Origin: Cyanophora paradoxa CCMP329
Lineage: Eukaryota; Plantae; Glaucophyta
Reading direction: 5' to 3'
DNA length: 64,000 nt
NCBI GenBank assembly: GCA_004431415.1
Contig: QPMI01000049.1
Coordinates: 1-64,000 of the forward strand
Part shown: piece after piece, positions 2,878 to 27,081 of the stretch
Layout of the letters: each line of letters starts with the position of its first letter
Position numbering within the stretch: position 1 is the first letter of the stretch
The notes under the pieces: model-generated
Told to the model about the DNA's origin: nothing
The model's input: the letters and a program-made list of their open reading frames with translations, nothing else
Databases searched by the model: none
Program-made: the position numbers and the translations under genes

Positions 2878-4320
2878 ATGGCTTCCGCGCTCATCTCCGC
2901 CCCCACCACCGCCCTCGCGCAGTCGCTCCTGAGCTCGAACTCGTCCGTGCACGTGAACGACTCCTTCGACACCGCGACGCCCTTCGTGGACGAGGTGCTG
3001 GAGGTCAGCCCGTCCAGAGCGGCATCAGCTTCGGTCAGACCCTCGATTTCATCATCCCGCACTCGGCGCCCCTCATCAACGATATTTGGCTCAAGGTTAA
3101 GCTGCCTGCGGTGGCCTCCGGGAAGATTTACCTCCCGAAGGCCGGCCTCATCCTGCTGAAGAAGGTGAAGGTTTTCGTGGGCACGCAGCTCGTCCACGAG
3201 TACGAGGGCGCCTACGATGCCATCTACGACGAGCTCGAGCAGGATCGTTCCGTTCCGCACACGGTCAACCTGATCAACGAGTGCTGGGCGACACAGGTTC
3301 TGCTGCGCCGCTCCCAGCGGGCGCAGGTGCTTCACATCCCGCTCCGCGTTCTCACCGGTTACGGTCGCAAGTTCGCCGTGCCCTCTATAAGCTCCGCGGC
3401 TCGGGCAACGACCTCAAGATTCAGATCACGTACGCGAGCCACAAGGATGTTACGGCCACCTGGGTCACCACCGGAATCCACACCGACAGTGGCCTGACGG
3501 CGACCACCGACCTCGATTCGAAGCTCGTGCTGCGCTACACCCACGTGAGCCCGTACGAGCTCAGCCTCCACCCCAACAGCGTCACGTGGGCTGGCAAGTA
3601 CATGCAGTCGTACAACGTAAAGTTCACGAGCGGCACGAGCTTCCGCCTGCCGTTCACTGGCGTCTGCTACGAGATGGTAATTGTCGTACGCGACGGCGCC
3701 GCGACGGACCAGGGTACAACTTCTGGAAGTTCCGCCCCTTGAGCAAAATCGACCTCAAGTGCGATAACATCAAGGCGCTCGACAGCTCTATTCACGACGC
3801 GCATTTCCTGCGCACCGCCATCGCGAACCGCGAGCACCGCAACGTGCCCACGCGCAAGTACCTCGAGCTGCTGCAGGGCTTCGCCGACAACACCGACGCC
3901 AACGGCGCAAAGGCCCTGGCGGAGGCGGCCGATACGACGTACGGTACCAACGAGGTTTCCATCATTAATGCGCTGCGCAATGCCCTTCACCCGCACCCGT
4001 GGTCGGGCAACGACACCGCCATCACCACCCTTGACACCCAGGATTACAACAACAGCGACATCATGCCAGCGGTGCAGAACGGCGCGGCAACCGCCGCCTC
4101 CGCTCAGTACGGCACCGAATTCATCTACGCTATTCCCTTCGGCACCGAGGTGGCAGACGACACGAAGATGTTCGGCGGCCTCGACTTCGGCGCCTTCAAG
4201 ACGATCGAGCTCACGCTCACCACGGCGGGGACGCTGACGACGCCGATCGCCGATATCTACTGCCGCTACTACAACGAGATCAGCTTCATCAACGGCGGCG
4301 CCTACCGCCGCTTCCATTAG
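2878..4320 (+). CDS. Major capsid protein, NCLDV-type double jelly roll (~480 aa, several frameshifts)
   Basis: Joined frames give FGQTLDFIIPHSAPLINDIWLKVKLP, LLKKVKVFVGTQLVHEYEG, LHIPLRVLTG..AVPLYKL, FRLPFTGVCYEMVIVVR, IYAIPFG...GGLDFGAFKTIELTLT and IYCRYYNEISFINGG. These follow the order of Capsid_N/Capsid_NCLDV motifs (FG...GDL...L...LP; IGGQ.ID; LYIPL.F....ALPL.AL; NHPVKEL; YSF...PSG..NFSRI; YA.NYNVLRI..G). Confidence 0.9.
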
Positions 4321-9858: not shown

Positions 9859-9868
9859 GTCTTGCCCA

Positions 9869-10209
9869 ATGGAGGCCCTGCTAGATCTCATGGCCTTTGC
9901 GCTGCCGATCTTCTTCCTGGTGGGCCTCAGCCGCATGGAGCGCGAGGCGCGCCAGCCCGAGCGCGTCGAGCGCGGCCTCACCCCGAAGAGCAGCGCGGCC
10001 TCACCGAGTGGGACCTGGCGCTCATGGCCGGCCGCATGCTCAACGGCGATCGGCTCGAGGCGGGCCACCGCCTCAAGCTAGAGGACGGCGGCACGGCCGT
10101 CTGGACGGGCGAGGCCTGGACGCACGACTCGACGGGCGAGCCGATGAAGCTGCTCGCCTCCGGCAACAAGTACTGGCGCGGCGACTCGATGGAGTACCGG
10201 CGCCCGTGA
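9869..10209 (+). CDS. Small viral protein with N-terminal hydrophobic segment (one frameshift)
   Basis: MEALLDLMAFALPIFFLVGL...EEQRGLTEWDLALMAGRMLNGD...KYWRGDSMEYRRP; TTTTCTAAG at 9851. Confidence 0.6.
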
Positions 10210-10235
10210 TTTTCTAGCCCTTCTACCAGCAAAGA

Positions 10236-10520
10236 ATGGCTGACCCCTCGCCCGACCCGGCCGCAGGCGTCGAGAGCGCTGGCAGCTCGGACGAGTACTC
10301 GGAGCTCTCGGATCCGGATCCCGACGAGCCCTCCGACGCCTTCGCGACCGAGAACGAGCGCTCCCTCATGCGCATCTACGAGTCCCTGCGCGAAGCTATC
10401 TACTGGGAGGACCCGCGCCTAGGGACCCTCATGAACTTCTCCAAGTTTGCCGAGTTCATGTTCGCTATGACCGTGCCCTTTACCCGAGTCGTGCTCTGGG
10501 ATAGGAACAGGAACTGGTAG
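10236..10520 (+). CDS. Small acidic viral protein
   Basis: Intact 94-aa ORF. The acidic N-terminus followed by L..IY..L...FSKFAEFMF is reminiscent of small phycodnavirus hypotheticals (recalled, unverified). GATTTTCTAG at 10208. Confidence 0.65.
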   Translation: MADPSPDPAAGVESAGSSDEYSELSDPDPDEPSDAFATENERSLMRIYESLREAIYWEDPRLGTLMNFSKFAEFMFAMTVPFTRVVLWDRNRNW

Positions 10521-10537
10521 TATTGAGTACAGAGCCC

Positions 10538-10939
10538 TACGAGCTAGAGCTGCTATCGCCCGAGTCCAGGCGCGCCTTCTTGGCCTTGGAGCGGCGGAGG
10601 CGGGAGACGTACTGCAGGCGCAGGTTGCGCACGAGCAGCTCGCCGGCCGTGGTGCCCGGCAGCCCGGGAACCGCGTCCGTGGGCAGCAGCTGGCCCTCGC
10701 GTATCGCCTTGTACGTCTTGCGCTTGTTGAATGCAACCTTCTCCGTATCTTCCGTGCCGTCGTACTCGGACGTGGGAAGGAACTGCGAGGCGGTCTTGGG
10801 GACTTCTAGAACCAGCGCGCGCTTGGCCTTCTTGACGGAGACTGCGTTCGCGCGCTCCAGCTTGACGCCGGGCTCCAGGGGGTAGCGGCGACTTCGTTCT
10901 CAGCGAAGGAGACACGGGGGAAGAGCCGCCGCGGGGCAT
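10538..10939 (-). CDS. Basic viral hypothetical protein (frameshifted)
   Basis: Corrected frame RRYPLEPGVKLERANAVSVKKAKRALVLEVPK...LRRSKAKKARLDSGDSSSSS; upstream CTATTTTCTAAA on the minus strand. Confidence 0.55.
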
Positions 10940-10955
10940 GGTTCGCTCGCTTTAC

Positions 10956-11282
10956 CTAGCGTTTAGAAAATAGCGCGCGAGCCTCGAGCACCAGGAGACC
11001 CGCCACAACCGCTGCGGCGATGACCACGGCAACCTTGAGCCAGTGCCAGAAGCGCTCGGCCACGTCCGTGAGCGCGCGGCCCGCCTTGCCCGGTGCGGTG
11101 AGTGCGGAGCCCAGCGCGCCCGCCGCAATGTCCGCCCACGCGCCTCCGTCGCCGCGCAGCACGTTCTCGCGGTTCTTCATCTCGACTGTGGCGCCGATCG
11201 CGGCGTTGAGCTCACCGAACTGCAGCCGCGGCGCGCCCTTGGGCCCAAAGGTCTTGGTGAGCAGCGCGTCGAGCCAGCTCAT
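10956..11282 (-). CDS. Small membrane protein (C-terminal TM)
   Basis: WLKVAVVIAAAVVAGLLVLEA; intact 108-aa ORF. Confidence 0.65.
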   Translation of the reverse strand: MSWLDALLTKTFGPKGAPRLQFGELNAAIGATVEMKNRENVLRGDGGAWADIAAGALGSALTAPGKAGRALTDVAERFWHWLKVAVVIAAAVVAGLLVLEARALFSKR

Positions 11283-11311
11283 CTCTACTAGCTAGCGCTT
11301 CGAAAATCTAT

Positions 11312-11805
11312 CTAAATCGCGAAGCCGCGCAGGTACCAGACCATGAGGAGCGAGCCGCCGAGCGCCACGAGCAACGGCAGGTGCCCGTCGACCGCGCGCC
11401 GCGCCTCCCAGGCCCAGATCTCCTGGCGGCTCAGCTCGTTCGCGCCGTCGAAGTAAGCGCTGACGCCGTACTCGCGCGCGGGCGCAGGCTGCGACCAGAG
11501 GCCGGCGCTCAGGCGCGGCGCCCCCTCCCTCTGCTGCTGCGAGGCCAGCGCCGCCGTCGCCGCGTGCGCCGCCTCGCGCTGGCCCGGGGCGATCGCCACG
11601 AGGGGCAGGGGCCCGACGCCGCGGCCCTTGCCCGCAGCCTTAATCGACTTTAGCGCCGGCGGCGCCGGGTCCGCGCCCTTATCTTAGGCCCCTCCGCCCG
11701 CCGCCGGCCTTCGCCCGCCCCGCCCTTGGCAGCCTCGCCGATCTTGCTGCAGCGCGAGTCCGATTTGAACACCGTACACAACAGCTTCTCTACGGCGTTG
11801 GGCAT
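11312..11805 (-). CDS. Membrane protein (C-terminal TM; true start probably ATG 11805, frameshifted)
   Basis: MPNAVEKLLCTVFKSDSRC...LPLLVALGGSLLMVWYL; AAATTTTCTTC motif upstream on the minus strand. Confidence 0.6.
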
Positions 11806-11926
11806 GTTTAGACGTGTACAGACGATGAAGAAAATTTAAATGCCAACGGACTCAAAAGGACGTCGCAACTTTGAAAAGGGAAAGGGGGGAATGAACTTGG
11901 GAAAACTTTGAAAAGGGAGAGTTAAC

Positions 11927-12118
11927 TTAGCGCCCCGCGGGGCGCATGCCGGCCGTCGCCATCGAGACGGAGCCGGGGGCGTAGAGGGACTTGGCGGCAT
12001 AGCCGAAGCCCACGCCTATGACGGCCGAGGCGGTGGGGGTGCCGCCGAGGAGCCAGGTGAGGGTCGCGGCGAGGGCTCCAAGGGTGTAGTGCTGTGGGTA
12101 GCTGTCAGCGAAGGCCAT
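11927..12118 (-). CDS. Very small two-helix membrane protein
   Basis: 63 aa, YTLGALAATLTWLLGG..SAVIGVGFGYAA; TATTTTTTCTCAA upstream. Confidence 0.6.
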   Translation of the reverse strand: MAFADSYPQHYTLGALAATLTWLLGGTPTASAVIGVGFGYAAKSLYAPGSVSMATAGMRPAGR

Positions 12119-12166
12119 CGCGGGACCGATTTGAGGGAGGGTTGAGAAAAAATACCGCCTCGGGCC

Positions 12167-13700
12167 TCAGTGGTGGAGGTGGCGGAAGGTCTCGGCGTGG
12201 GCCTCCGTCGCCGCCGCCACGTCCTCCGCCGCGTCGATCTCCGCGCGCGAGGCCTCCAGCGTCGCCCGCCGCGCGTAGGACTGCGGGACGGCCACGCGCC
12301 GGTAGCTGTAGCCGAGGCCCTTCGACAGCCCCGCCGTCTCCGCCTCGAACGCCCGCCAGCGCTCCGAGGCCTCCGCGCCGGAGATCTGGCCGGCGCGGAA
12401 GCCCGCCTCCAGCTCGGCGCGGAAGGCGAGGGTGTGCTGGAGGCGCTGGGCCCGACGGCCCTGGCGCCGCTCCTCCGCCTCGCGCGCCAGGCGCGCCGCC
12501 AGGGCCTGCCGCTCGGCCTCCTGCTGGGCCCGAAGCCCTGGATCGCGGAGAGGACGGCGCCGGGCCGGGGACGGGGCTGGGGCCGTCGGCGCTCGCGGGG
12601 AGGCGGAGGTACCCTGCCCTTGGATCAGGAGGGGGCGGGGGGAGGGGGGGTACGGGAGGGAAAGCGGGGGGTACGCGGGGCCGGACCTGGCGCGGCAGCA
12701 TCTCGTCGATGCGCTGCTGGCCGGGGCGCTGCTGGGGGGCAGTGGCGGGGGGCTGGGGCGGGAGGAAGGCCGGCGCCGAGTTGCGGGTGCGCTTGCCCTT
12801 GCCCTTGGTGTGGGGCTTGACGAGGAAGGGCCCGACGTCGGCCACCGGGTCCTTGAACTGGGCGACGGGGATCGCGATCGCCTCCAGCGCCGGCTGGCTC
12901 TCGCCGAGGGAGAGCGGGGCCTTGGGGACGATGCCGCGGATGTAGGTCTGCCAGACGCCGCCGAGCTTGTAGGAGTAGAGGCGGCACGAGGAGCCGAAGC
13001 CGGCGAGGGTCTCGTCCAGCCGGCCGTTCTCGATGTCAGCGCCGACGGCGGCGGAGGTGTCCGGGCCCTCCGTGCGCGCGATGTACTCGACGATGCCCGC
13101 GACGCTCGTCATCCAGCCCTCCGTCTCCGAGCCGACGAGGAAGGTGGTGGGGTCGACGACGCAGTGGGTGATGATGAAGCGGGTGAGGGGGCAGGAGGCC
13201 GTCTCCTGCCAGAAGGCGAGGCGCTTCTCCCGCAGCCACACCGGCTCGAAGGCCTGGATGCAGGAGGCCTGGCGGCCACCTGCGGCGCGGGCGACGTTAG
13301 CGCGTACGACGTCGGGACGGGCGGGGAAGGTGCGCGGCTTCGAATCCAGCGGCTCCCCGCGAAGCTGCCTGCGGCCCAGTGAGCGTGCTGCGAGCGGGAG
13401 GTGGGAGGGATTGGGCGGGCGGGCCTGCGTCCAGCGCTGAAACGTAGCTCCACTGATGCTATCCGCGATGCGCGTAGCCCGCGACTGGCCGCGGACAAGG
13501 GAGGGCTTAGCTAGGACAAGAACGGGTGTGGGGCGCGGGGCTGGAGGCGCGGGGAGGCGAGCCGGAGCCGCCGAATCGATGCGCGGGCTTGAGAACGAGA
13601 TCTAGAAGCGTGCGCAAGTCGCCGCGAACGTCGGCTCGAGTTGCGGAAGGCGCGGCGGCCAATCTCGGCACCTGCTCAGAGACCAAATGTCAGCGGACGC
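12167..13700 (-). CDS. Large viral protein of unknown function (globular domain, Pro-rich linker, coiled coil); start uncertain
   Basis: CIQAFEPVWLREKRLAFWQETASCPLTRFIITHCVVDP...LYSYKLGGVWQTYIRGIVP, then AERQALAARLAREAEERRQ...HAETFRHLHH after frame correction. Confidence 0.55.
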
Positions 13701-14423
13701 GGGCGAATCGAGCGCGAGGTTGCGGGGCATGTTCTAGGTGCTAAATGCAAGGGATAGAGCGGCAAGAGAGCGAGCTGGCACCTGCGGGATGCGGCGGAGT
13801 GCTCCGGCTCGGGCGCCATCGAGCTTTCGAAGGTCCGCGGCCGGCGCGAGCGACCCTGCGCGTGGCGGCGTGAGTGCGGCGTCGAGAGAGCTTTCCAGCG
13901 CCCAAAATCTGAGGTCCGGAGCTAGCCGTGGTGCGGAGAAAGAGGTTGCGAAGTGAGGCGCACCTCCGAATCGAAAGGAGCGAGGCGGCGGCTCTCCGGG
14001 CTGAGCGGAATGCAAGCTAGTGCCTCTGGCAAGTGCTGCAAGGAGCGCTGGGCCCGGGCGCTGCGAGATGCGCTGCCCGGGCGCTTTTTTTCGGGTTGGG
14101 GTACTGTGTTTTGAGTCGAAACACGTGGAGCAACCGCGTGAGCCCAAAACTTTCTGAGCTTAGGAGCAAAGGCGGTCGAGCGCTCGGCCGCGCAAGCTAG
14201 CTCCGGCGCGCTCTGCCTTCTCTCTACACGTGTCGCATTCACGTGCGCTCAAAACTTTCTAAGCTTCGGTCAAGCAAGGGCTAGCGCTTCCGAAGTTCTA
14301 CGCGCGCGCCTCCCCGTCCGCCGGGCCGACGGTCTGCGCGTCACATCGTCCGCTGCGCCAAGAAGGAGAGATCAAGACGGTGTCAACCGGGTCTAGTTGA
14401 GCGCTTAAGGTCGGACCAAAGCC

Positions 14424-14558
14424 TGTCCCGACCCTCCAGATCTTTAAATTAATATCTCAGAAGGTCGAGACAGCCGCTGAGCAGTCCGGATCCAGACGGA
14501 CCAGAGCCTGTCCCGACCCTCCCAGATCTTTAAATTAATATCTCAGAAGGTCGAGACA
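14424..14558. repeat. Two ~50-bp imperfect palindromes with AT-rich centre (origin-like)
   Basis: TGTCCCGACCCTCCCAGATCTTTAAATTAATATCTCAGAAGGTCGAGACA at 14424-14472 and 14509-14558; duplicated at 18887-18936 and 18973-19022. Confidence 0.9.
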
Positions 14559-14648
14559 GCAGTCCAGACGTCGACTATAGCTAGCCAACAGACGTTGACT
14601 AGCCTAGTAGATCTAGAATTTTCCAAGCCTAGCTATAGAGAGACGACC

Positions 14649-16740
14649 ATGGCAACCGGACGCGTGTCTCTCGACGTCGACGCCTTCCTGGCCCGTATGC
14701 CCGGGCCCGGGGTACAGCAGATAGATCTGAGCGAGCAGGAGTGCAGCTTTTTCGTTCGATTCCCTCTCGTCGAAGTCCAGAAGGCCTGCAGCCCGACCCT
14801 GGGGACGGCTTTCTGCGTCTTCCACCCGCCCTGCATCACCCCCAGCCACTTCTCGGGTGCCGAGGATGAGACGAGCACCGCGGCAGCCTGCGCCTTTGCA
14901 ACCAAGTTCGGAGGCTTCACTTTCTCTCGCCCCTTGGATAATGGATTCAAGGCTGCCTACGTCCTACAGAGCCCGGAGGCTTGCGATCTCATGGCATGGT
15001 TCTTTGGGAGCTCGAGCGGCCTGGAGCTCGGTGTGGATGGCACGGGGGGCTACGTTCTGCGGGGGCCGGCGCCCGGGCCGCGAGCGGAGCTCCTCCCCAC
15101 TCCATCCAGAAGCTCGGCGCCCCGCGCTAAGCCCATCCCGGAGCCGGGCGCTCTCCTGGATTCGAGCCCAAGCCTGCCGGCCTTGGAGCGGCTCCTGGAC
15201 CGCCTGCGCAAGAACAAGGCGGTGAGGGACGAGATCTGGAAGGCGGGGCAGAGCTGCGCGCGGACCTTGGCCTGCACGACGCCCGCCGCGTTCAGCACCT
15301 TGGAGTCGAGCCCGACGGGTCCATCACCCTCGTCCTGGGCGGGAGTCAGCCGGGGCGCCGGCGGCTCGAATCTCCATCCAGGCGCACGGTATTGAAGTCG
15401 AGCTCGAGGGGGAGGGGACCGGAGGGGAGTCGGGCAGCGTGGCACAGACCCGCTATGTGACCGATCCCTCGCAGCCTGTCGCCTTCGACATTGCCCTCCC
15501 CTCCCTCCTGATCGCGCTCGAGTCGACGGGCCTGGAGGCTTGCGTCAATGCAGTGGATGAACGCCACCTCTCGTGCAAGATCCTTACCTCCGCATTCGGG
15601 GCGCTGGAGCAGAACCCGAGATCCGCTCAGCCGCAGGTCGACGTCATCTGCTCGGGACTCAACACGGGGAAGACGCAGGCGCTGATCGATGCGTACCTGG
15701 ACCCGGCCCTCGCAGGCGGCTGGCGAGTGATCCTCGTGACTTGCCGCCGGGCCTTCTCCCGCGACCTCAAGCGTCGCATTGATGCTGCGGAGTTGTCAAA
15801 GGACGCCGTGCTTTACATGGACATCAAGAAGCCACCGGAGAGCTCAAAGGGATCGCATGGCAAGTGGGGCTTCCGCCATGAGGAGTGCAGGTGCGTCGTC
15901 ATCACATGGGACTCGCTGCACAAGGTGCTCGAGGACTGGGAGGGCTGGTCGACGGCGCCGCTACTGGTCGTGCTGGACGAGCTCTCCTCCCTCACGAAGC
16001 ACCTCACCTCGAGCGGCACCCTCGAGCCCACCGGCCTGCACCTAGGTATGCGGTCAGTGCCTCGAAACGCGCGCTGCGTGGGCCTATGGCGCGGCGTGAT
16101 GAAGGCATCGCGCATCGTGGCGATGGACGGCTTCGTTCGGTCGGTCGATCTCGCGTACCTGGCAGAGTCGGCGCAGGAGGTCGGGGCGCGCCTGGGGCTC
16201 CTGTACAACTCGCATCGCACCTGCGACTGGAAGATGCGCGTGTCAGACAGCCCGGCGCACGTCGAGGCGGACATCATGGTGCAGTGCCGACCTGGGCGCT
16301 CGCGGGCCATGATCATCGCGGAGACGCCGGCCAAGGCGATCGAGCTGCAGGAGAAGATTGCGAAGCAGGCGCTGGAGCAGCTCAGCCTGGGCGGCGCTCA
16401 GTACGTGACTCAGCTCGAGGCAGGGCCCGAGGACGGCAGCGGCGCACCGTTCACGATCGGGCTCATCGTTGGGCAGGCCAAGGAGAAGAGCGTGCGCTTC
16501 ACGAACGAGGGCCCAGTGCGCATCGTGTCGATCGATGTGTCTGAGGAGGGCGCGTACAAGGCCTGCGACGTGCTCATCGCAACTTCCGCGCTCGGGGCAG
16601 GCGTGGACTTTTCGGACGCGCACTTTGACAAGGTCTACGGCGTGTTCCAGGCGGAGCCCGCGCAGCTGGAGGCGGACGACATCGTGCAGCTGCTGTTTCG
16701 AGTCAGAAGGCTGCGCAAACGCAGCGCCCGCCGCGCGTAG
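14649..16740 (+). pseudogene. UL9-like origin-binding helicase, copy 1, truncated by the duplication junction just after helicase motif VI
   Basis: Same sequence as copy 2 up to QLLFRVRRLRKRS, then reads into the duplicated antisense segment and stops at 16740. Confidence 0.8.
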
Positions 16741-18160
16741 GACTGCGGGACGGCCACGCGCCGGTAGCTGTAGCCGAGGCCCTTCGACAGCCCCGCCGTC
16801 TCCGCCTCGAACGCCCGCCAGCGCTCCGAGGCCTCCGCGCCGGAGATCTGGCCGGCGCGGAAGCCCGCCTCCAGCTCGGCGCGGAAGGCGAGGGTGTGCT
16901 GGAGGCGCTGGGCCCGACGGCCCTGGCGCCGCTCCTCCGCCTCGCGCGCCAGGCGCGCCGCCAGGGCCTGCCGCTCGGCCTCCTGCTGGGCCCCGAAGCC
17001 CTGGATCGCGGAGAGGACGGCGCCGGGGCCGGGGACGGGGCTGGGGCCGTCGGCGCTCGCGGGGGAGGCGGAGGTACCCTGCCCTTGGATCAGGAGGGGG
17101 GCGGGGGGAGGGGGGGTACGGGAGGGAAAGCGGGGGGTACGCGGGGCCGGACCTGGCGCGGCAGCATCTCGTCGATGCGCTGCTGGCCGGGGCGCTGCTG
17201 GGGGGCAGTGGCGGGGGGCTGGGGCGGGAGGAAGGCCGGCGCCGAGTTGCGGGTGCGCTTGCCCTTGCCCTTGGTGTGGGGCTTGACGAGGAAGGGCCCG
17301 ACGTCGGCCACCGGGTCCTTGAACTGGGCGACGGGGATCGCGATCGCCTCCAGCGCCGGCTGGCTCTCGCCGAGGGAGAGCGGGGCCTTGGGGACGATGC
17401 CGCGGATGTAGGTCTGCCAGACGCCGCCGAGCTTGTAGGAGTAGAGGCGGCACGAGGAGCCGAAGCCGGCGAGGGTCTCGTCCAGCCGGCCGTTCTCGAT
17501 GTCAGCGCCGACGGCGGCGGAGGTGTCCGGGCCCTCCGTGCGCGCGATGTACTCGACGATGCCCGCGACGCTCGTCATCCAGCCCTCCGTCTCCGAGCCG
17601 ACGAGGAAGGTGGTGGGGTCGACGACGCAGTGGGTGATGATGAAGCGGGTGAGGGGCAGGAGGCCGTCTCCTGCCAGAAGGCGAGGCGCTTCTCCCGCAG
17701 CCACACCGGCTCGAAGGCCTGGATGCAGGAGGCCTGGCGGCCACCTGCGGCGCGGGCGACGTTAGCGCGTACGACGTCGGGACGGGCGGGGAAGGTGCGC
17801 GGCTTCGAATCCAGCGGCTCCCCGCGAAGCTGCCTGCGGCCCAGTGAGCGTGCTGCGAGCGGGAGGTGGGAGGGATTGGGCGGGCGGGCCTGCGTCCAGC
17901 GCTGAAACGTAGCTCCACTGATGCTATCCGCGATGCGCGTAGCCCGCGACTGGCCGCGGACAAGGGAGGGCTTAGCTAGGACAAGAACGGGTGTGGGGCG
18001 CGGGGCTGGAGGCGCGGGAGGCGAGCCGGAGCCGCCGAATCGATGCGCGGGCTTGAGAACGAGATCTAGAAGCGTGCGCAAGTCGCCGCGAACGTCGGCT
18101 CGAGTTGCGGAAGGCGCGGCGGCCAATCTCGGCACCTGCTCAGAGACCAAATGTCAGCGG
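16725..18160 (-). pseudogene. Second, 3'-truncated copy of the unknown 12167-13700 gene
   Basis: Duplicate sequence lacking the last ~95 bp of the gene. Confidence 0.6.
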
Positions 18161-19041
18161 ACGCGGGCGAATCGAGCGCGAGGTTGCGGGCATGTTCTAG
18201 GTGCTAAATGCAAGGGATAGAGCGGCAAGAGAGCGAGCTGGCACCTGCGGGATGCGGCGGAGTGCTCCGGCTCGGGCGCCATCGAGCTTTCGAAGGTCCG
18301 CGGCCGGCGCGAGCGACCCTGCGCGTGGCGGCGTGAGTGCGGCGTCGAGAGAGCTTTCCAGCGCCCAAAATCTGAGGTCCGGAGCTAGCCGTGGTGCGGA
18401 GAAAGAGGTTGCGAAGTGAGGCGCACCTCCGAATCGAAAGGAGCGAGGCGGCGGCTCTCCGGGCTGAGCGGAATGCAAGCTAGTGCCTCTGGCAAGTGCT
18501 GCAAGGAGCGCTGGGCCCGGGCGCTGCGAGATGCGCTGCCCGGGCGCTTTTTTTCGGGTTGGGGTACTGTGTTTTGAGTCGAAACACGTGGAGCAACCGC
18601 GTGAGCCCAAAACTTTCTGAGCTTAGGAGCAAAGGCGGTCGAGCGCTCGGCCGCGCAAGCTAGCTCCGGCGCGCTCTGCCTTCTCTCTACACGTGTCGCA
18701 TTCACGTGCGCTCAAAACTTTCTAAGCTTCGGTCAAGCAAGGGGCTAGCGCTTCCGAAGTTCTACGCGCGCGCCTCCCGTCCGCCGGGCCGACGGTCTGC
18801 GCGTCACATCGTCCGCTGCGCCAAGAAGGAGAGATCAAGACGGTGTCAACCGGGTCTAGTTGAGCGCTTAAGGTCGGACCAAAGCCTGTCCCGACCCTCC
18901 CAGATCTTTAAATTAATATCTCAGAAGGTCGAGACAGCCGCTGAGCAGTCCGGATCCAGACGGACCAGAGCCTGTCCCGACCCTCCCAGATCTTTAAATT
19001 AATATCTCAGAAGGTCGAGACAGCAGTCCAGACGTCGACTA

Positions 19042-20001
19042 TAGCTAGCCAACAGACGTTGACTAGCCTAGTAGATCTAGAATTTTCCAAGCCTAGCTAT
19101 AGAGAGACGACCATGGCAACCGGACGCGTGTCTCTCGACGTCGACGCCTTCCTGGCCCGTATGCCCGGGCCCGGGGTACAGCAGATAGATCTGAGCGAGC
19201 AGGAGTGCAGCTTTTTCGTTCGATTCCCTCTCGTCGAAGTCCAGAAGGCCTGCAGCCCGACCCTGGGGACGGCTTTCTGCGTCTTCCACCCGCCCTGCAT
19301 CACCCCCAGCCACTTCTCGGGTGCCGAGGATGAGACGAGCACCGCGGCAGCCTGCGCCTTTGCAACCAAGTTCGGAGGCTTCACTTTCTCTCGCCCCTTG
19401 GATAATGGATTCAAGGCTGCCTACGTCCTACAGAGCCCGGAGGCTTGCGATCTCATGGCATGGTTCTTTGGGAGCTCGAGCGGCCTGGAGCTCGGTGTGG
19501 ATGGCACGGGGGGCTACGTTCTAGCTAGCCAACAGACGTTGACTAGCCTAGTAGATCTAGAATTTTCCAAGCCTAGCTATAGAGAGACGACCATGGCAAC
19601 CGGACGCGTGTCTCTCGACGTCGACGCCTTCCTGGCCCGTATGCCCGGGCCCGGGGTACAGCAGATAGATCTGAGCGAGCAGGAGTGCAGCTTTTTCGTT
19701 CGATTCCCTCTCGTCGAAGTCCAGAAGGCCTGCAGCCCGACCCTGGGGACGGCTTTCTGCGTCTTCCACCCGCCCTGCATCACCCCCAGCCACTTCTCGG
19801 GTGCCGAGGATGAGACGAGCACCGCGGCAGCCTGCGCCTTTGCAACCAAGTTCGGAGGCTTCACTTTCTCTCGCCCCTTGGATAATGGATTCAAGGCTGC
19901 CTACGTCCTACAGAGCCCGGAGGCTTGCGATCTCATGGCATGGTTCTTTGGGAGCTCGAGCGGCCTGGAGCTCGGTGTGGATGGCACGGGGGCTACGTTC
20001 T
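19042..20001 (+). repeat. 480-bp in-frame tandem duplication of the helicase 5' region
   Basis: TAGCTAGCCAACAGACGTTG at 19042 and 19522; ORF 19059..20072 contains the 160-aa block twice. Confidence 0.95.
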
Positions 20002-22710
20002 GCGGGGGCCGGCGCCCGGGCCGCGAGCGGAGCTCCTCCCACTCCATCCAGAAGCTCGGCGCCCCGCGCTAAGCCCATCCCGGAGCCGGGCGCTCTCCTG
20101 GATTCGAGCCCAAGCCTGCCGGCCTTGGAGCGGCTCCTGGACCGCCTGCGCAAGAACAAGGCGGTGAGGGACGAGATCTGGAAGGCGGGGCAGAGCTGCG
20201 CGCGGACCTTGGCCTGCACGACGCCCGCCGCGTTCAGCACCTTGGAGTCGAGCCCGACGGGTCCATCACCCTCGTCCTGGGCGGGAGTCAGCCGGGGGCG
20301 CCGGCGGCTCGAATCTCCATCCAGGCGCACGGTATTGAAGTCGAGCTCGAGGGGGAGGGGACCGGAGGGGAGTCGGGCAGCGTGGCACAGACCCGCTATG
20401 TGACCGATCCCTCGCAGCCTGTCGCCTTCGACATTGCCCTCCCCTCCCTCCTGATCGCGCTCGAGTCGACGGGCCTGGAGGCTTGCGTCAATGCAGTGGA
20501 TGAACGCCACCTCTCGTGCAAGATCCTTACCTCCGCATTCGGGGCGCTGGAGCAGAACCCGAGATCCGCTCAGCCGCAGGTCGACGTCATCTGCTCGGGA
20601 CTCAACACGGGGAAGACGCAGGCGCTGATCGATGCGTACCTGGACCCGGCCCTCGCAGGCGGCTGGCGAGTGATCCTCGTGACTTGCCGCCGGGCCTTCT
20701 CCCGCGACCTCAAGCGTCGCATTGATGCTGCGGAGTTGTCAAAGGACGCCGTGCTTTACATGGACATCAAGAAGCCACCGGAGAGCTCAAAGGGATCGCA
20801 TGGCAAGTGGGGCTTCCGCCATGAGGAGTGCAGGTGCGTCGTCATCACATGGGACTCGCTGCACAAGGTGCTCGAGGACTGGGAGGGCTGGTCGACGGCG
20901 CCGCTACTGGTCGTGCTGGACGAGCTCTCCTCCCTCACGAAGCACCTCACTCGAGCGGCACCCTCGAGCCCACCGGCCTGCACCTAGGTATGCGGTCAGT
21001 GCCTCGAAACGCGCGCTGCGTGGGCCTATGGCGCGGCGTGATGAAGGCATCGCGCATCGTGGCGATGGACGGCTTCGTTCGGTCGGTCGATCTCGCGTAC
21101 CTGGCAGAGTCGGCGCAGGAGGTCGGGGCGCGCCTGGGGCTCCTGTACAACTCGCATCGCACCTGCGACTGGAAGATGCGCGTGTCAGACAGCCCGGCGC
21201 ACGTCGAGGCGGACATCATGGTGCAGTGCCGACCTGGGCGCTCGCGGGCCATGATCATCGCGGAGACGCCGGCCAAGGCGATCGAGCTGCAGGAGAAGAT
21301 TGCGAAGCAGGCGCTGGAGCAGCTCAGCCTGGGCGGCGCTCAGTACGTGACTCAGCTCGAGGCAGGGCCCGAGGACGGCAGCGGCGCACCGTTCACGATC
21401 GGGCTCATCGTTGGGCAGGCCAAGGAGAAGAGCGTGCGCTTCACGAACGAGGGCCCAGTGCGCATCGTGTCGATCGATGTGTCTGAGGAGGGCGCGTACA
21501 AGGCCTGCGACGTGCTCATCGCAACTTCCGCGCTCGGGGCAGGCGTGGACTTTTCGGACGCGCACTTTGACAAGGTCTACGGCGTGTTCCAGGCGGAGCC
21601 CGCGCAGCTGGAGGCGGACGACATCGTGCAGCTGCTGTTTCGAGTCAGAAGGCTGCGCAAACGCAGCACGCCCGACGGGGAGCACCTGCTCGTCGCCGTG
21701 CGCAAGAACCGGACGCCCTCGGTTGCGGTCGGCGCGGCGGCTGCGCACTGGCGTGAGAGCGACGACGACGAGAGCTCGGACGACATGCAGCGCTACCTGG
21801 ACCTGAAGGCTAGCCACCGCGGGAGCCGCCGCGCCGGCATGCCCACTCGGCGCCTCGCAGTGGCAGCGCGCCTGCGGCTGATGTCGACCTGCGCGCTGAT
21901 GAACGTGCAAGTCACGGAGGATCAAAACCCGAGCGGACCGAAGCAGGAGAAGGAGCAGCGGCTGCGCGAGATCAGGAGCGTGCTGGAGGCGGGCGCGCTG
22001 GAGCCCGTCGATCTGTGGAGCACGGTGCTGGCCTGGAGGCAGTCCCGCGAGTCTCTCGCTAAGCTGGACATCGAGAAGGTTGCTTCGCTTGCTCGCACGT
22101 CGATCGCCGCGTTCCTGGCCAAGGATCCGAGCGAGCTGACCGAAGGAGACGTCGCCTGGATGTGGGATTCGTTCTACTCCATCCCGCTCACTGCCGTGGT
22201 CACGCTGGTGCTGAAGCATGGCGCGGACGTTGCCGAGATCGTGCCTACTGCTGAGCGCCTCAAGGTATCGAAGGTCGTCGCGCTGTTCAAGAAACTCTTC
22301 GGCTGGCGGGGTATGGAAAGCTCGCGGGGCGTGCTCTGTGGTCGGACGAAGCCTACGCGGCCCTGGCGTCGCCGGAGGGTCGGGAGGCGTACGCGGCTCT
22401 GCAGAGTCTGGACGAGCGCGCGCCCCGCTTCGATGCAGCGGACGGTGAGAAGAAGCGGCTCTCGCAGCAGTCTTGGCAAGTCATCAAGTACCTGCTGGAG
22501 AAGTACCTCGGAGTGAGACGCGCTTTCTCCGACGCGGACGGAGGGCAAATGGGCAGCCGAAAGCGACGCTACATCACGTGGGAGGAAGACATGCTCGACG
22601 ACGCAGTAGAGCGCCAGGCTAAGCAGGCAAGGGCAGGCATGGCGCCAAGCTTCCCAGAGGTTTACAACGTTTTCTCCGACTGCTATGCTCTCATTCACAG
22701 GCGCGTGTGA
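19113..22710 (+). CDS. SF2 helicase, herpesvirus UL9/Herpes_ori_bp-like replication origin-binding protein (full-length copy, frameshifted)
   Basis: Motifs CSGLNTGKT (I), ILVTCRRAF (Ia), VVITWDSLHK, LVVLDELSS (II), IVAMDG (III), VLIATSALGAGVDF..HF (V) and QLLFRVR (VI) are typical of UL9-like helicases of herpesviruses and NCLDVs. Confidence 0.88.
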
Positions 22711-22811
22711 TTGTCGGATGTCACAGTGTGGACTTCGCGAACGGGATGCGCGTGCCAGTGTGTAAATACGAACGTGCGAATTCAAGTGACGTCATGCATA
22801 TGATCAATGAA

Positions 22812-22860
22812 TGTCTCGACTTTTTGAGATATTAATTTAAAGATCTGGGAGGGTCGGACA
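22812..22860 (-). repeat. Inverted copy of the 50-bp palindrome downstream of the helicase
   Basis: TGTCTCGACTTTTTGAGATATTAATTTAAAGATCTGGGAGGGTCGGACA is the near reverse complement of the 14509 copy. Confidence 0.9.
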
Positions 22861-23139
22861 TTGCGAGGCGGACGAGAGTGAGGGCATGCACTCTCTATGT
22901 GTCCCGACCTTTTCTGAACAACTCATGATTGCCGTATCATCGATCTGCATTTACTCACTTCGTTCTCTGTCGCTTGCACATGCGCGGTGTGGGATTACTA
23001 ATTAGATCTAGTCTCCCTAGCCCTCTGCGGCCGCCTTCCTGCCCCCTGCAAAGAGCAGCTCAACCAAATCCTGTGGGGTCTGATTCATTGCAGACTCGCC
23101 TTCCCGCCTGGGCCTGAGCTACACCAAGCTACGGTGAGT

Positions 23140-23402
23140 CCGACCAAGAGACGTGTCCGGACCCTCCCTACTTTCTTTATAGATTATTGGAAAGGTCCGG
23201 ACACTAGAGGAGGGAGGGCGTACATAAGTAGTCTGACCAAGAGACGTGTCCCGACCCTCCCAGATCTTTAAATTAATATCTGAGAGGGTCGAGACACTAG
23301 AGGAGGGCGTACATAAGTAGTCTGACCAAGAGACGTGTCCCGACCCTCCCAGATCTTTAAATTAATATCTGAGAGGGTCGAGACACTAGAGGAGGGCGTA
23401 CA
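23140..23402. repeat. Three 89-bp tandem units, each carrying the 50-bp palindrome
   Basis: Palindromes at 23154-23203 (diverged), 23247-23296 and 23336-23385; the period is 89 bp between the last two. Confidence 0.92.
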
Positions 23403-24047
23403 ACTTAAACTCGCGCAGCGCCGCCTGCTCCTCGCTGAGGTTCTCTGACTTCATTCGATCGCTGTAGGGCTCGGGCGGAGTTCCAGCCTTCACGTGCGAC
23501 CAAAATAGATGTAAGCACCGCCGCATGAGCTGAATGTACCTCTCGTCCCGTCTGACGTACCACGTTCGCACGCGCAGAGGCGTGAAGCAAAAAAGTTCGG
23601 CCCACTCGCGGCCCGTTATGTCTAAAAGTCCTTGCAGCTGCGTCATGTAATAGGTAGGAACCTTGTCGTAGAGTTCTTGTTTGTACGGACATTTTATTTC
23701 GAGTATGCGATCGTTTCCGATTAGCCCGTCCGGGCTCCCGCCAGGAAGGCAGTTCCTTATGTTCGTGCAATCCAGTATGTTGCACGTCCACGTTATTGTT
23801 CAACGTTTTGTAGAGAGAGACGCGAAGGGCTCATAGTCATGCCGTAGGTTAGGGCAGGGTTGTCAAAGTTGTTTTCCTCCGCTATCCCGCTTAGCTCCGC
23901 CCACAGGCGGGCCCTGGATTTCCAGGGGTTTATACCGCACGCAGCCGCAAAATTAGATGCAGTTAGTTTTTCACGGCGCGCCGCGTGCCACGCCGCGCTC
24001 CCCTGTTGTAAGTTCTCGCAAGTCTCGCAATCTGTATCGGTATGCAT
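23386..24047 (-). CDS. YqaJ-like / lambda-exonuclease family PD-(D/E)xK nuclease (frameshifted)
   Basis: QGSAAWHAARREKLTAS...YG...FLAGSPDGLIG...LEIKCPY...YYMTQLQGLLDITGREWAELFCF after frame correction. Confidence 0.9.
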
Positions 24048-24097
24048 AGCTTAGCCTCGCAGTAGCGTTTAGAATTTCTTGATGTGTGCGAATGCAT

Positions 24098-24827
24098 ATG
24101 TCTGATAATCAGACTACCCTCCCACCGCTATCGGGGTACATCCGAGATTACACTAAGCAGGTAAACGGGCTGATCGGCTGGGTGAAAGAAGAGATCCCCA
24201 ATACAATGCGAGACGGGGGCATGGCTGCGACGTATTTGCGCGATGTGGCACGCAGAGGCCTCGGGTCCAGGGTAGACATCCGAACGTATGAGCCGCCGGT
24301 GTACGAAATCGAACACAGGGACGACATGGGCAGGGTTCGCGATGAACTTCGCAAGCTCTGGTGGGCGTTCGGCTCGCGCAAGAGCCCCATGACCTACCTG
24401 CCCAAGACGTTCAGAGAGTTATACTGGATCTCTTCCTGAATGCGGGCACTCGCACGGAGATCATCAATCGCCCGCTCAATATTTTGAAGCACTACTTCCA
24501 AGGCTTCGTTCACCACGCCAAAAACAAGGAAGATGAATGGGTGGTACCCTATGTCCCCCATCGGATTTGATCCCTGAAGGATGGGACGAAGAACAAGACA
24601 ATATGGAAGAACGGTTCAAGAGATACAAGTATAGAAAACTGACGCCTGCCGGCCCACCGTACGGCCCACCGGCGCCCACGGCGGAGCAGCGCCAAGAGAT
24701 ACTGCGGGAGGGTCAGATTCGCAGGTGGATGGAGTACAGCAATGATCCGACGAGCTGGTCGCCAGACGAGGCCGAGCTGCGGAAGCGCGCGAGGCTGCCA
24801 GGCCCTCGATACCCCGACCGCGAGTAG
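24098..24827 (+). CDS. Viral protein with internal F-box-like motif, paralog 1 (frameshifted)
   Basis: LRKLWWAFGSRKSPMTYLPKDVQRVILDLF...EQRQEILREGQIRRWM...WSPDEAELRK. Confidence 0.6.
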
Positions 24828-24861
24828 GGGTACAGGTAGAAATTCTCAGCGAGCCGCGAGC

Positions 24862-25599
24862 ATGGCGCGAACACGCGAGTCCGACGTGCTGTACAACAAC
24901 GGCGACCTGGACGGGGAGATTCGACAGCGGAACGTGGACTTGGAGGATGCGAACGCAGTGCTGGAGGGGAGGCGCACGTCCTCAGGGGGCGGCTCGCCGG
25001 CGGAGAACTTCATGGAGCGCGTGCTCTACCTTGTGCGCTGGATTAGAGACGAATTCCACGACGAGCGAGAGCTCCCGGACAGGGAGATGATCAGGGCCGC
25101 GGGCTTGATGGGTATGACAGAGAACCCGAGATCGTACCTGAGGCGCGAACGCAGGGATCTGAACGGCGATTGGGCCGACCTGCAAGCGCTGTGGACGGCC
25201 TTTGCGAACCGCAAGAGCCAGATCCTTGCCCTGCCCGCGCAGGTACAGCAGCGTATCATTGATTTCGTAGCCCCCTGGCGCGACGAGTCCCTCCAGCAGC
25301 CATTCATGCAACCACGCTTCCTCTCCGGGCTCAGGAGCGCGTTCTTCCACTTGGCCGTGAGCAGCGACCGGTATTTCACACCGCAGAGGATCGTTCACGG
25401 CGAATTCGGCATACCCCCCGAGTGGCTGAATTTTGCCACCGTACCCCTTCCCCACCCCGCCTCGAAGGCCCCCCTCCCCTACCCCGAGCAGCGTGAGTCA
25501 CTCAAGCGTCAGAGGGAGGTACGCGAATGGATGGACGACACCAGCCACTGGGTACAGGGCGAGGCCGAATTACGCAAGTTCGGAAGGTCCGGGCAGTAA
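24862..25599 (+). CDS. Viral protein with internal F-box-like motif, paralog 2
   Basis: LQALWTAFANRKSQILALPAQVQQRIIDFV...EQRESLKRQREVREWM...WVQGEAELRK; GAAATTCTCAG upstream. Confidence 0.65.
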   Translation: MARTRESDVLYNNGDLDGEIRQRNVDLEDANAVLEGRRTSSGGGSPAENFMERVLYLVRWIRDEFHDERELPDREMIRAAGLMGMTENPRSYLRRERRDLNGDWADLQALWTAFANRKSQILALPAQVQQRIIDFVAPWRDESLQQPFMQPRFLSGLRSAFFHLAVSSDRYFTPQRIVHGEFGIPPEWLNFATVPLPHPASKAPLPYPEQRESLKRQREVREWMDDTSHWVQGEAELRKFGRSGQ

Positions 25600-25813
25600 C
25601 AGCGGGGGGTACAGCATTCAGTTAGAGCCTGAGCATCGTTAGAGGCCGGGAGGCCCCCCGAGGGGTACACCGGCTGTTACTCCCCGCGTCGGTTAGTGCT
25701 AGCCCCCCTGTTAGTGCAGCGTGTACCTGATCGCAATATAACACCCAAACCTCCGCGACGCGTGACTCATGCAACCTCCGAGGGTTAACAATGCATTGAC
25801 AGCGAAGGGGCAA

Positions 25814-26800
25814 GCTCGAGAGCTCAACGCTTCACAAAGGCCCACATATATATTTGTAATTACGTATACGTATACGTATACATATGTGTGCATGTATACG
25901 TATACGTATACGTGCCGGCATTGCGTGTGGGGCCTTATAATTAAACACAGAGTTGATGGAAAGAAAGCTTGAGTAAACGTATTATTTCGAATCGGTGAGC
26001 TCGAGCGAGAATTACAAAGGGGGAGAAATATATATATATATATAATTTGTTCAAATACGATTGCGACTCCCTCGGTGCGGCCGTGCGGCATGCGCGCGTA
26101 ATCGCAACATCGATATCGATATCGTAGCTGAAATCATAATCGCAACATCGTAGCTGAGACTTGAAATCGTAATCGCAACACCGTAGCTGAAATCGTAATC
26201 GCAGCATCCGATGATCACAGCATCGTTACTGATTGCGAATTCTAAGCCTTAATTAAGCTTGGTGCTGGTGCCGCAGCGCTAGATGCGAGATTCTGATCAA
26301 TCGTAATCCAGCTTACTTCTTTATATATATAGCTAGCTTTGTGAGGACCCCTTTTTATTCGCGCCGGGGGCGCCGCGGGGCGGGGACAGGATCATAATTT
26401 GGAGATCGACGTCATTCTTAAAATTTCTACAATTAAAGAAGCTTATATACGTATTATATATATGATAATATATACAAGGTCCGAGTTAATAATTGTATTA
26501 AGACATAAATTTGACCGTCGATCGACGTCGACGTCGAATCGTCGTCGATATTATTTGTTTTTATACGGGCATGTCGAGCCGATTAGGAAAAAAACGAGCT
26601 GTGGTATATATACGTACGTACGCGTCGTCGACGTCGTTCAACTCGTCGAAGACGAACCGATAGGTGATTCGTATACGTATGGAATCGTATCATAGTATAC
26701 GTATTCGACGTCACGGCGTATACGTATACTACGGTATACTACTAGTAGTACGTATATATACGTCTCAGCTACGTAATACGTATACCTGCCCGGATACCTG
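25814..26800. repeat. AT-rich hairpin/palindrome and short tandem repeat zone at the virus-host boundary
   Basis: Perfect 22-bp stem 25862-25883/25892-25913; ~26-bp repeats AATCGTAATCGCAACATCGTAGCTGA x4 at ~26097-26207; dense TATACGTATA and CGACGTCG words. Confidence 0.8.
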
Positions 26801-27081
26801 CCATGCCAGGCTGCAGCCTGCAGGCTGCCGGGCGCCGCGCGGCGCGCGCCGGCCGCCGGGCTCGAGCTCAGCGCAGTGCGAGCGAGCCTCGGAGAGCACT
26901 AGCCGCTGAGCTGGCGGCGCTCATCGCGGCGCCGGGCGGCGGGCATCCTCATCGCCATCACGGCGCGGGCCGGGCGTGGCACTTGATTCAACGCCGCCTA
27001 GCCTAGTACTACGGTATATACGCAGGCCGCTAGCCGAATCGCAAAATTTCTCAAGTTTGAAGGCCGGCAGCGACTGGCATC

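Follow-up and report, generated by a model that had tools for sequence, protein, structure and literature searches.

The window analysed here is a 64,000-nucleotide stretch of the Cyanophora paradoxa CCMP329 genome (contig QPMI01000049.1, positions 1 to 64,000). Judged from sequence, it carries a multi-copy endogenous DNA virus of this glaucophyte alga, to which a helicase gene and a set of palindromes belong. The features concerned are:

2878..4320, + strand: probable major capsid protein gene of the NCLDV double jelly-roll type (Capsid_N), with frameshifts in the assembly but intact in model P0003
14410..14418, + strand: third box-like motif, G(T/A)CNGACCA, 5-7 bp 5′ of the left box
14424..14472, + strand: palindrome site 1, boxes TGTCCCGACC / GGTCGAGACA
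14509..14558, + strand: palindrome site 2, ending 90 bp 5′ of the helicase ATG
14516..22673, − strand: spliced antisense RNA over the helicase gene; introns: 11 GT..CAG (49-65 nt) and one likely GT..TAG (117 nt)
14649..16733, + strand: helicase gene, first assembled copy, an N-terminal domain without family match and an SF2 core (motifs I-VI)
16725..21677, no strand: tandem duplicate (4.46 kb) of 12263-16733, with a further 480-bp repeat inside it (19042-20001)
18887-18936 and 18973-19022, + strand: duplicates of sites 1 and 2, inside the tandem duplication
19593..22710, + strand: helicase gene, second assembled copy, including the entire C-terminal ~350 aa
22812..22860, − strand: palindrome site 3, inverted, 100 bp 3′ of the helicase stop
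22900..22909, + strand: lone half-site TGTCCCGACC
23154..23203, + strand: palindrome site 4, variant, boxes TGTCCGGACC / GGTCCGGACA
23247-23296 and 23336-23385, + strand: palindrome sites 5 and 6, in 89-bp tandem units
23386..24060, − strand: gene of the YqaJ / lambda-exonuclease family, with assembly frameshifts and an approximate 5′ end

The capsid gene marks the element as an endogenous virus. Capsid_N was matched with E 1e-8 by P0005 and with 1e-4, below the cut-off, by P0003; the PBCV-1 capsid was the top structural match, for a model of pLDDT 35. The named close homologues come from C. paradoxa. Among the ORFs scanned in this element, which is frameshift-rich and runs off the left edge of the window, none matched HUH endonuclease, VLTF2/3, RuvC or packaging ATPase. 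Searches of viral contigs (with helicase, capsid and palindrome queries), metagenome contigs and phage records found no relative with DNA. The element is mosaic: identity to the read contigs is 99-100% in the helicase module and about 95% in 9551-10195.

Two helicase copies had been reported in the initial annotation. These reduce to one gene, doubled by a near-identical 4.46-kb duplication that the read contigs do not support. The segments 12263-15058 and 14578-16733 recur at 16725-19522 and 19522-21677, respectively, with 99.6-99.7% identity, and the copies differ almost solely by homopolymer indels. In all four runs compared, contigs follow the unduplicated form from 19522 onward, and in both DNA runs they lead from 16725 straight to the C-terminal part of the helicase. 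Among the read pieces listed, from contigs that drop rare variants, none joins or bridges either duplication junction. The duplication is either a locus-specific rearrangement or an assembly artefact. Because the read contigs follow the unduplicated form, we count one helicase gene and six sites. The first assembled copy is truncated at the duplication junction and has a one-base frameshift near 15352; the second has several one-base homopolymer frameshifts, the last bridged by gene model P0010 (9 members). The unduplicated gene has about 1,040 codons.

In each palindrome an AT-rich centre, which is an imperfect dyad, lies between two inverted 10-bp boxes set 30 bp apart. The pattern TGTCNNGACC-N28..32-GGTCNNGACA gave 7 matches in the window versus 0 in 100 shuffles; the 50-bp AT-centred palindrome first noticed here is real. 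The eight copies then counted are present in the assembly as eight starts (14424, 14509, 18887 and 18973 on the + strand, 22812 inverted, and 23154, 23247 and 23336 on the + strand), but they represent six sites, two of them doubled by the duplication. The 22812 copy escapes the pattern because its outer box has one substitution and is short of a G that is supplied at 22855 by the read contigs in three out of four runs; site 1 has one C fewer than its duplicate at 18887, a homopolymer indel. Elsewhere in the window an ungapped 51-mer scan gave no score above 26/51, and, apart from the lone half-site at 22900, the palindrome indeed occurs nowhere else. As an indirect view of its spread in host DNA, the loose ends listed at palindromes in DNA runs are flanks already present in the window; those listed in one RNA run were mixed. 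All sites lie within about 700 bp of the one helicase gene, and no other gene in the 27-kb viral part has one. Arms of about 19 bp, as initially described, hold for 23247 and 23336 (18 of the first 20 positions pair) but not for 14509 (14/20) or 23154 (the 10-bp boxes only). Likewise, what had been taken for three 89-bp tandem units proved to be units of 93 and 89 bp, the first being a diverged variant. The near-palindromic third motif accompanies five of the six sites (also at 14495, 23138, 23231 and 23320) and is missing at site 3. A search of positions 1-30000 against Rfam gave no match. Cumulative GC skew, proposed earlier as a check, has no switch at the sites and was uninformative.

Site 4 carries the most informative variation. 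Both of its boxes are altered jointly and symmetrically, with the 30-bp spacer and an 85% AT centre retained, while the inner arms have decayed and no longer pair, leaving only the outer 10-bp boxes fully paired. This coupled change with kept spacing suggests selection on boxes and spacing, not on a hairpin, and fits what would be expected of a protein-binding site. It bears on the idea that the palindromes are 3′-end hairpin signals, like the polyadenylation palindromes of Mimiviridae (hairpin rule, accessible part of PMC4402537). Four sites do lie between convergent genes, site 6 ending right at the stop codon of the convergent YqaJ nuclease gene, and the sites fold as DNA with z of -2.3 to -5.5. 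However, inner-arm pairing is not kept, two sites lie 5′ of the helicase between divergent genes, and the remaining convergent gene pairs of the element have no site. We regard this explanation as very improbable.

The arrangement of the sites could also point to recombination or resolution sites, as the initial annotation had proposed in second place, by which the helicase gene would invert, excise or be swapped between virus subfamilies. Sites 1-2 are inverted relative to site 3 around the gene and direct relative to sites 4-6, the helicase falls into four subfamilies within a mosaic element (99-100% vs about 95%), and the YqaJ nuclease gene adjoins. Tyrosine-recombinase sites have 11-13-bp arms around a 6-8-bp core. 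The palindromes depart from this format with 10-bp boxes 30 bp apart and a centre that is no perfect dyad. No recombinase family was matched among the 23 window ORF pieces scanned against Pfam, and no joint at a palindrome was found among the joints listed in 8 runs. Since the 30-bp spacer is unfit and neither duplication junction falls at a palindrome, this possibility is weakened, and we consider it improbable.

The helicase core resembles those of replication initiators. Its core matched the Pfam family PF02399 (Herpes_ori_bp) with 36.5 bits (cut-off 20, E 2e-9), and the only PDB sequence matches with E <0.01 were four UL9 chains (E 0.001). The predicted structure of the paralogue P0001 had HSV-1 OBP (9hgj_B) as best match (Z 14.7, rmsd 3.2, 190 aligned; next 12.7), and the named top matches in BFVD were mostly origin-binding proteins. 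Foldseek on PDB ranked generic SF2 helicases on top and UL9 38th; fold matches to the predicted structure (mean pLDDT 44) span residues 109-459 only. The likeness to UL9 noted at the outset is thereby borne out for the core. Outside the core, RVKNL, the recognition motif of UL9 (accessible part of PMC12543377), is missing in all aligned paralogues (15-row alignment), and the C-terminal domain had no match to known domains in the searches run, with only unnamed clusters at 0.84-0.85, a lead-level score, in the ESM Atlas. For the N-terminal domain, neither window positions 14649-15350 nor the same part of P0002 had a Pfam match, hence no DUF3854, and no primase family matched in family profile scans. 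The aligned paralogues form four subfamilies, the others being of the P0015, P0018 and P0001 types. A search of 1.84 billion representatives returned 5 matches, three of them ids already found in EukProt and two near-copies of these subfamilies with no source given.

The highest family score of the core was for the cyanobacterial plasmid protein CyRepA1 (Slr7037; NCBIfam NF042913), with E 1.4e-16 and 60.6 bits (43.5 for P0019) against a cut-off of 200. Profile-profile comparison gave a probability of 97.8% over 340 columns, the match ending about 250 residues short of the helicase C-terminus, and blastp gave 22-29% identity over the core. Among plasmid records 64 matched, those listed being cyanobacterial. 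Unlike CyRepA1, of which an N-terminal Toprim-like DUF3854 domain is a feature (PMC10079941), the viral helicase has no DUF3854 match.

We propose, with a probability of about 0.55, that the UL9/CyRepA1-type helicase likely recognises the six palindromes next to its gene as replication origins. In oriS of HSV-1, inverted boxes flank an AT-rich spacer and a third box is present (accessible part of PMC12543377); the third box is inverted to box 1 and forms the oriS* hairpin. The viral sites have the same geometry of boxes and spacer, with a third box-like motif beside the first; the helicase core is homologous to that of UL9 by sequence and fold, and an exonuclease gene lies nearby in both systems. 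The viral box is TGTCCCGACC, compared to GTTCGCAC in HSV-1. The viral protein further differs by the absence of RVKNL, a C-terminal domain without detected homology and an extra N-terminal ~270 aa, and the six sites hug the initiator gene of a probable double jelly-roll virus integrated in an alga. Baculovirus hrs are repeated imperfect palindromes in short tandem units, able to act as origin and enhancer. They differ in being spread round the genome and bound by IE1, whereas the viral sites all lie within about 700 bp of the helicase gene.

In such an origin module, the inverted 10-bp boxes, spaced by about three helical turns, would both be contacted by the helicase, probably via its C-terminal domain. 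Once bound, it would melt the ~20-bp AT-rich centre, and host polymerases could act at the resulting bubble. With origins kept on either side of it, the gene would form a self-contained module together with the sites, initiator and target staying matched. The analysis shows how the sites are built and spelled, that within this window they are confined to the surroundings of the helicase gene, how the helicase is related, that CyRepA1 genes contain a related repeat and that the antisense RNA is spliced; binding, melting, origin activity and regulation are inferred.

Helicases of the same class are known from Yaraviridae and mriyaviruses, mimivirus (R8), ASFV (F1055L) and SmDNAV, for none of which, nor for PLV-like helicases, is a cognate origin named in the accessible parts of the literature. 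Like the Yaraviridae/mriyavirus set, as far as the accessible text describes it, the element appears to be a small Nucleocytoviricota-like virus with the helicase as replication gene and no polymerase in its visible part. An intact N-terminal AEP primase is a feature of Yaraviridae SF2_hel, R8 and F1055L (accessible part of 10.1101/2024.02.29.582850); the N-terminal domain of the window helicase matched no primase family in the scans run. In PLV-like EVEs, PF02399 was recorded in Streptophyta (15/34), Rhizaria, Ochrophyta and Chlorophyta, and in 0/156 glaucophyte EVEs (Table S6, PMC12220804).

A similar repeat was found in CyRepA1 genes, nine of which were selected through a protein match or their name. 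In 8 of the 9, the top-ranking inverted repeat of the final 400 nt has the form C-rich / AT-richer / G-rich and lies 117-316 nt 5′ of the stop. Compared to shuffles it is strong in five genes (0-10 of 200) but not in L003, L005 and L023 (82-93 of 200); the gene of pSYSA, a proven initiator (L021), has a half-site only. Lineages differ in both arms, the core falls in two different codon phases (L001 vs L003), and the L003 arm TGTCCACACCC matches the window's TGTCCCGACCC at 9 of 11 positions. A pattern tuned, like the relaxed pattern, after L001-L005 had been seen occurred 5 times in five whole plasmids (952 kb), always at CyRepA1 3′ ends; its reversed control did not occur. A box pattern derived strictly from the window had the 3′ site as best match in 5/9 loci, at modest strength (2-31 of 200 shuffles), and a strict sequence-free scan recovered it in 4/9 loci against about 1 chance match per 7.5-7.9-kb locus. 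In a scan of genome contigs 11 of 15 matches fell in CyRepA1 homologues, which mostly reflects conservation within Nostocales since the pattern was built from L001/L002; the other four were hairpins from actinobacteria that have no AT centre. A CyRepA1 gene has one site, located inside the gene, whereas the virus has several, located between genes. CyRepA1 is essential for pSYSA replication, whose priming is placed upstream of the rep gene (accessible part of PMC9978351).

This related repeat inside distant homologous initiator genes, of which the initial annotation was unaware, is extra support. The annotation's suggestion that the palindromes are the cognate origins of the helicase is partly supported. 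It gains from the UL9-like core, the oriS-like geometry and this repeat, while two helicase copies with eight sites have become one with six and RVKNL is absent.

A second origin-like structure lies at 8053-9511, where nested inverted repeats and a 15-bp iteron cluster separate divergent genes: four ~90-bp arms, two facing each way and each with two copies of a 15-mer, surround a 246-bp centre of 61% AT. This might be the true origin, the palindromes then being autoregulation operators or passively duplicated remnants. The structure could equally consist of transposon ends nested in one another, nothing links it to the helicase, and the symmetric box change at 23154 and the similar CyRepA1 site would be left unexplained. 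We find this quite improbable.

The helicase gene is covered by a spliced antisense RNA, its splicing being seen in runs from three studies, with further minus-strand introns past sites 1-2. Subject to assembly indels and unlisted introns, a protein-coding antisense gene was not supported: the spliced model has 8-25 stops per frame and a longest ATG frame of 235 low-complexity codons. The run search listed no matching run registered as RNA. Another possible reading is that the palindromes act as directional promoters or enhancers, in which activator boxes flank a TATA-like centre, with sites 1-2 driving helicase mRNA and inverted site 3 driving antisense RNA. Site 2 ends 90 bp 5′ of the ATG, and the sole copy in inverted orientation lies 3′ of the gene and faces into it. 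In run X17 a deep antisense contig starts at 22673, some 140 bp away from that copy, and the summed depth drops from 944 to 25 in the next bin. Contigs, however, cannot reveal transcript starts, and the antisense RNA may start elsewhere since a second X17 contig exits the element at 22673 with at least 255 letters not on 8000-27500, the first 22 of them not in the window. Moreover, no further gene in the 27-kb viral part has a site, and minus-strand spliced RNA also extends beyond sites 1-2. We judge this explanation unlikely. Origins and promoters often overlap, so both roles may hold.

With the palindromes as origins, the spliced antisense RNA probably keeps the initiator repressed in the integrated state. 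Antisense RNA also takes part in pSYSA replication control (accessible part of PMC9978351); there it is unspliced and overlaps a small upstream gene, not the rep gene, whereas the viral one is spliced and covers the helicase gene. A wider scheme, which we hold tentatively and think more doubtful than probable, is that UL9-type initiators of cyanobacterial plasmids and eukaryotic viruses alike use one origin design of ancient date, in which the letters of the boxes are partly shared. The CyRepA1 3′-end repeat would then mark where those plasmids have their origin, so far unmapped, the glaucophyte virus would have inherited protein and site together, and the alga would silence dozens of integrated copies with spliced antisense RNA over the initiator gene.

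In the literature searched, with subscription papers and bioRxiv supplements outside its scope, we found no description of the element's helicase, palindrome or antisense RNA, and its accessible parts name no DNA target for UL9-like helicases outside herpesviruses. Such helicases occur also in giant viruses, ASFV, mriyaviruses, PLV-like elements and cyanobacterial plasmids. Through this locus, a single cultured alga provides a 50-bp candidate target, natural variants of it and four helicase subfamilies, which makes recognition directly testable. For CyRepA1 plasmids, which are used as vectors, it predicts a defined site within the 3′-terminal part of the rep gene, and the antisense RNA hints at how alga or virus may control an integrated replication gene.

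The initial annotation placed eight copies of a palindrome around two helicase genes. The palindrome is present at each of the eight places; the number of copies was overstated, as a duplication, possibly an assembly artefact, adds two sites and a helicase gene. Segment 12263-16733 recurs head to tail at 16725-21677 with 99.6-99.7% identity, an extra 480-bp repeat lying within the duplicate, and the 16 differences between the copies consist of 14 homopolymer indels and two junction changes. Contigs of four public runs continue in the unduplicated form past 19522, and past 16725 contigs of both DNA runs lead into the helicase C-terminus. Among the contigs listed from the four runs, which can lose rare variants, none spans either duplication junction. 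Since the read contigs follow the unduplicated form, the element in its common form carries a single helicase gene of ~1,040 codons, with two sites upstream and, downstream, one inverted site, a half-site and three tandem sites:

14424 and 14509: palindromes upstream of the helicase (duplicates at 18887 and 18973)
22812: palindrome, inverted
22900: box half-site, unpaired
23154, 23247 and 23336: palindromes in tandem

The invariant part of the palindrome is two inverted 10-bp boxes, TGTC(C/T)(C/G)GACC, spaced by 30 bp, around a centre of 84-85% AT. The single box occurs 15 times in the window against 0.43 expected, and the paired pattern seven times against none in a shuffled control. A 29-bp spacer in two copies reflects one missing homopolymer base in each: the base missing at 14424 is present in its duplicate, and the G missing from the 22812 copy is supplied at 22855 by read contigs. 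Five of the six sites also carry a third motif, G(T/A)CNGACCA, ahead of the left box; its only other occurrence is at 3703. At site 23154 both boxes are altered to a perfectly symmetric pair, with spacer length and AT content kept, and the inner arms no longer pair; at site 14509 pairing is limited to 14 of the first 20 positions. Judged from the one diverged copy, 23154, selection seems to act on the boxes, their spacing and meltability. This would suit protein binding and fit poorly with hairpin signals or recombinase cores. That the palindromes are recombination sites is unlikely, and that they are hairpins marking 3′ ends, of the kind treated in the available part of PMC4402537, is very unlikely.

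We propose instead, with a probability of roughly 0.55, that the palindromes are the cognate origins of the helicase. By analogy with oriS, the herpes simplex virus origin, the helicase would bind both boxes, the AT-rich centre would melt, and host polymerases would then copy the DNA. The helicase core matches Herpes_ori_bp (E 2e-9) and, among PDB sequences, UL9 chains (E 0.001). HSV-1 OBP is the top structural match of the paralogue P0001 (Z 14.7, rmsd 3.2, 190 aligned, helicase domain only; model mean pLDDT 44) and ranks 38th by Foldseek alone. Among the families, CyRepA1, an initiator of cyanobacterial plasmids, scores highest against the core (E 1.4e-16, far under the family cut-off; 340 profile columns), and 64 plasmid records match the helicase. 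No family match was obtained for the N- and C-terminal domains in Pfam and family profile scans, and in the paralogue alignment the helicase lacks the RVKNL motif, with which UL9 reads oriS according to the accessible text of PMC12543377. Helicase and palindrome would work like UL9 and oriS, yet by the tests run they are members neither of that system nor of the CyRepA1 one. UL9-like helicases are described in mriyaviruses, mimivirus, ASFV and SmDNAV (available parts of 10.1101/2024.02.29.582850 and 10.64898/2026.08.29.747986), and frequent switching of replication modules in PLVs (available part of 10.64898/2026.06.19.733378). We found no published description of the palindrome system, most subscription papers and bioRxiv supplements lying outside the scope of the search.

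Searches of viral contigs, metagenome contigs and phage records yielded no viral relative for which DNA is available; nine CyRepA1 loci were therefore compared, eight of them picked from the 64 records for their protein match, and pSYSA chosen by its name. They represent about six lineages, with 24-56% identity between lineages. In eight of the nine genes, the best inverted repeat of the last 400 nt is a site with a C-rich arm, an AT-richer centre and a G-rich arm, 117-316 nt before the stop:

L001:5504-5565, L002:5397-5452 and L003:5466-5508: 3′ inverted repeat with AT-richer centre
L004:5338, L005 and L023:5147: 3′ inverted repeat with AT-richer centre
L022 and L024, ~300 nt before the stop: 3′ inverted repeat

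At most 10 of 200 shuffles matched the site in L001, L002, L004, L022 and L024, and 82-93 of 200 in L003, L005 and L023; remaining tiles of the genes scored up to 12. The arms vary on both sides from one lineage to another, and L001 and L003 read the CACACC core in differing codon phases, which makes it unlikely that protein constraint is the sole cause. One of the L003 arms agrees with the viral arm in 9 of 11 positions. With a pattern derived strictly from the window, the 3′ site was the best match in five of nine loci (2-31 of 200 shuffles), and in six of nine once the pattern was relaxed after inspection of the data. In five whole plasmids a tuned pattern occurs five times, always at CyRepA1 3′ ends, the second occurrence in plasmid W01 falling in a split CyRepA1 copy. 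pSYSA has a half-site only, followed by AT-rich DNA; its authors proposed priming upstream of the gene (available text of PMC9978351). The terms 'palindrom', 'AT-rich' and 'iteron' are absent from the available text of PMC9978351 and PMC10079941, as are 'repeat' and 'UL9' from that of PMC10899382. The repeat inside the CyRepA1 3′ end is a candidate plasmid origin, and the comparison is suggestive of a shared site, not decisive. Downstream, the gene is followed by diverged additional copies of its 3′ end (L001:6650-6780, L002:6803-7016, L013 and L017), which look like leftovers of gene replacements.

The helicase gene is also covered by RNA from the opposite strand:

14516-22673, on to the equivalents of ~17706-18426, minus strand: spliced antisense RNA, deep coverage in runs of three studies

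Among the joints listed, contigs of run X17 skip at least 12 pieces within the helicase ORF; 11 of the 12 are GT..CAG on the minus strand, 49-65 nt long, and the remaining one is probably a 117-nt GT..TAG intron. Runs X15 and X18, each from a further study, show the covered introns again, along with more minus-strand introns on the far side of the upstream palindromes. None of these joints is found in the DNA runs; the RNA status of the three runs is a guess backed by the splicing. Across the skipped pieces the sense ORF stays open and conserved, and the spliced antisense model holds no long frame, so the transcript is probably non-coding. It either starts near the inverted site 22812 or derives from an exon for which the window has no match, and may represent silencing or viral self-control. 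A role of the palindromes as oriented promoter or enhancer is possible, if rather doubtful, and would be compatible with origin function. An X17 contig departs from the element at 22673; beyond that point at least 255 letters have no counterpart on 8000-27500, and they may come from an exon farther upstream or from a truncated copy next to a host promoter.

The stretch from 1 to ~26,100 is an endogenous DNA virus. Its genes include a capsid with an NCLDV-type Capsid_N match (top fold match the PBCV-1 capsid, from a poor model), DUF5767 and a YqaJ nuclease; intron-rich host genes, including purD and a TPR protein, lie beyond. All close homologues with a recorded source are EukProt gene models, and the five homologue clusters checked are Cyanophora paradoxa; helicase homologues number 31 sequences in twelve clusters and four subfamilies. 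Helicase contigs have, as a rough figure, ~30-65x the depth of the flank contig in three runs, an excess that may stem from integrated copies or from episomes. Endogenous viral elements of C. paradoxa were catalogued earlier (available part of PMC12220804); its Table S6 gives PF02399 in 0 of 156 glaucophyte elements, a set that may include the present one, versus 15 of 34 in Streptophyta.

Read contigs are 99-100% identical over the helicase module (13241-22854) and ~95% over its left neighbour (9551-12400), a step that makes this copy a mosaic of subfamilies. Gene models P0014 and P0017 fuse helicase parts to sequence located downstream of the helicase in the window, and P0011 to sequence from the opposite strand, a hint that more rearranged or tandem copies exist. 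At 6806-7552 (minus strand) a 248-aa ORF has no significant family match and may, from its resemblance, encode an OB-fold single-strand DNA-binding protein. The right end of the element lies near 26,070-26,230, and in an AT-rich, TACGTA-rich zone (25860-26900) depth drops to host level. The host side carries tandem repeats:

32448-33285: 4 x 209 bp, identical
35069-35238: 10.6 x 16 bp
60582-61685: 2 x ~570 bp

The cluster at 8053-9511 comprises four arms of ~90 bp, two direct and two inverted, with a pair of 15-bp repeats in every arm, nested round a 61% AT centre; it is a candidate second origin or a set of nested transposon ends. That the origin lies in this cluster instead of the palindromes is very unlikely. 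As putative origins, the palindromes provide targets that can be tested for non-herpesviral UL9-like helicases, and likewise for CyRepA1 plasmids.
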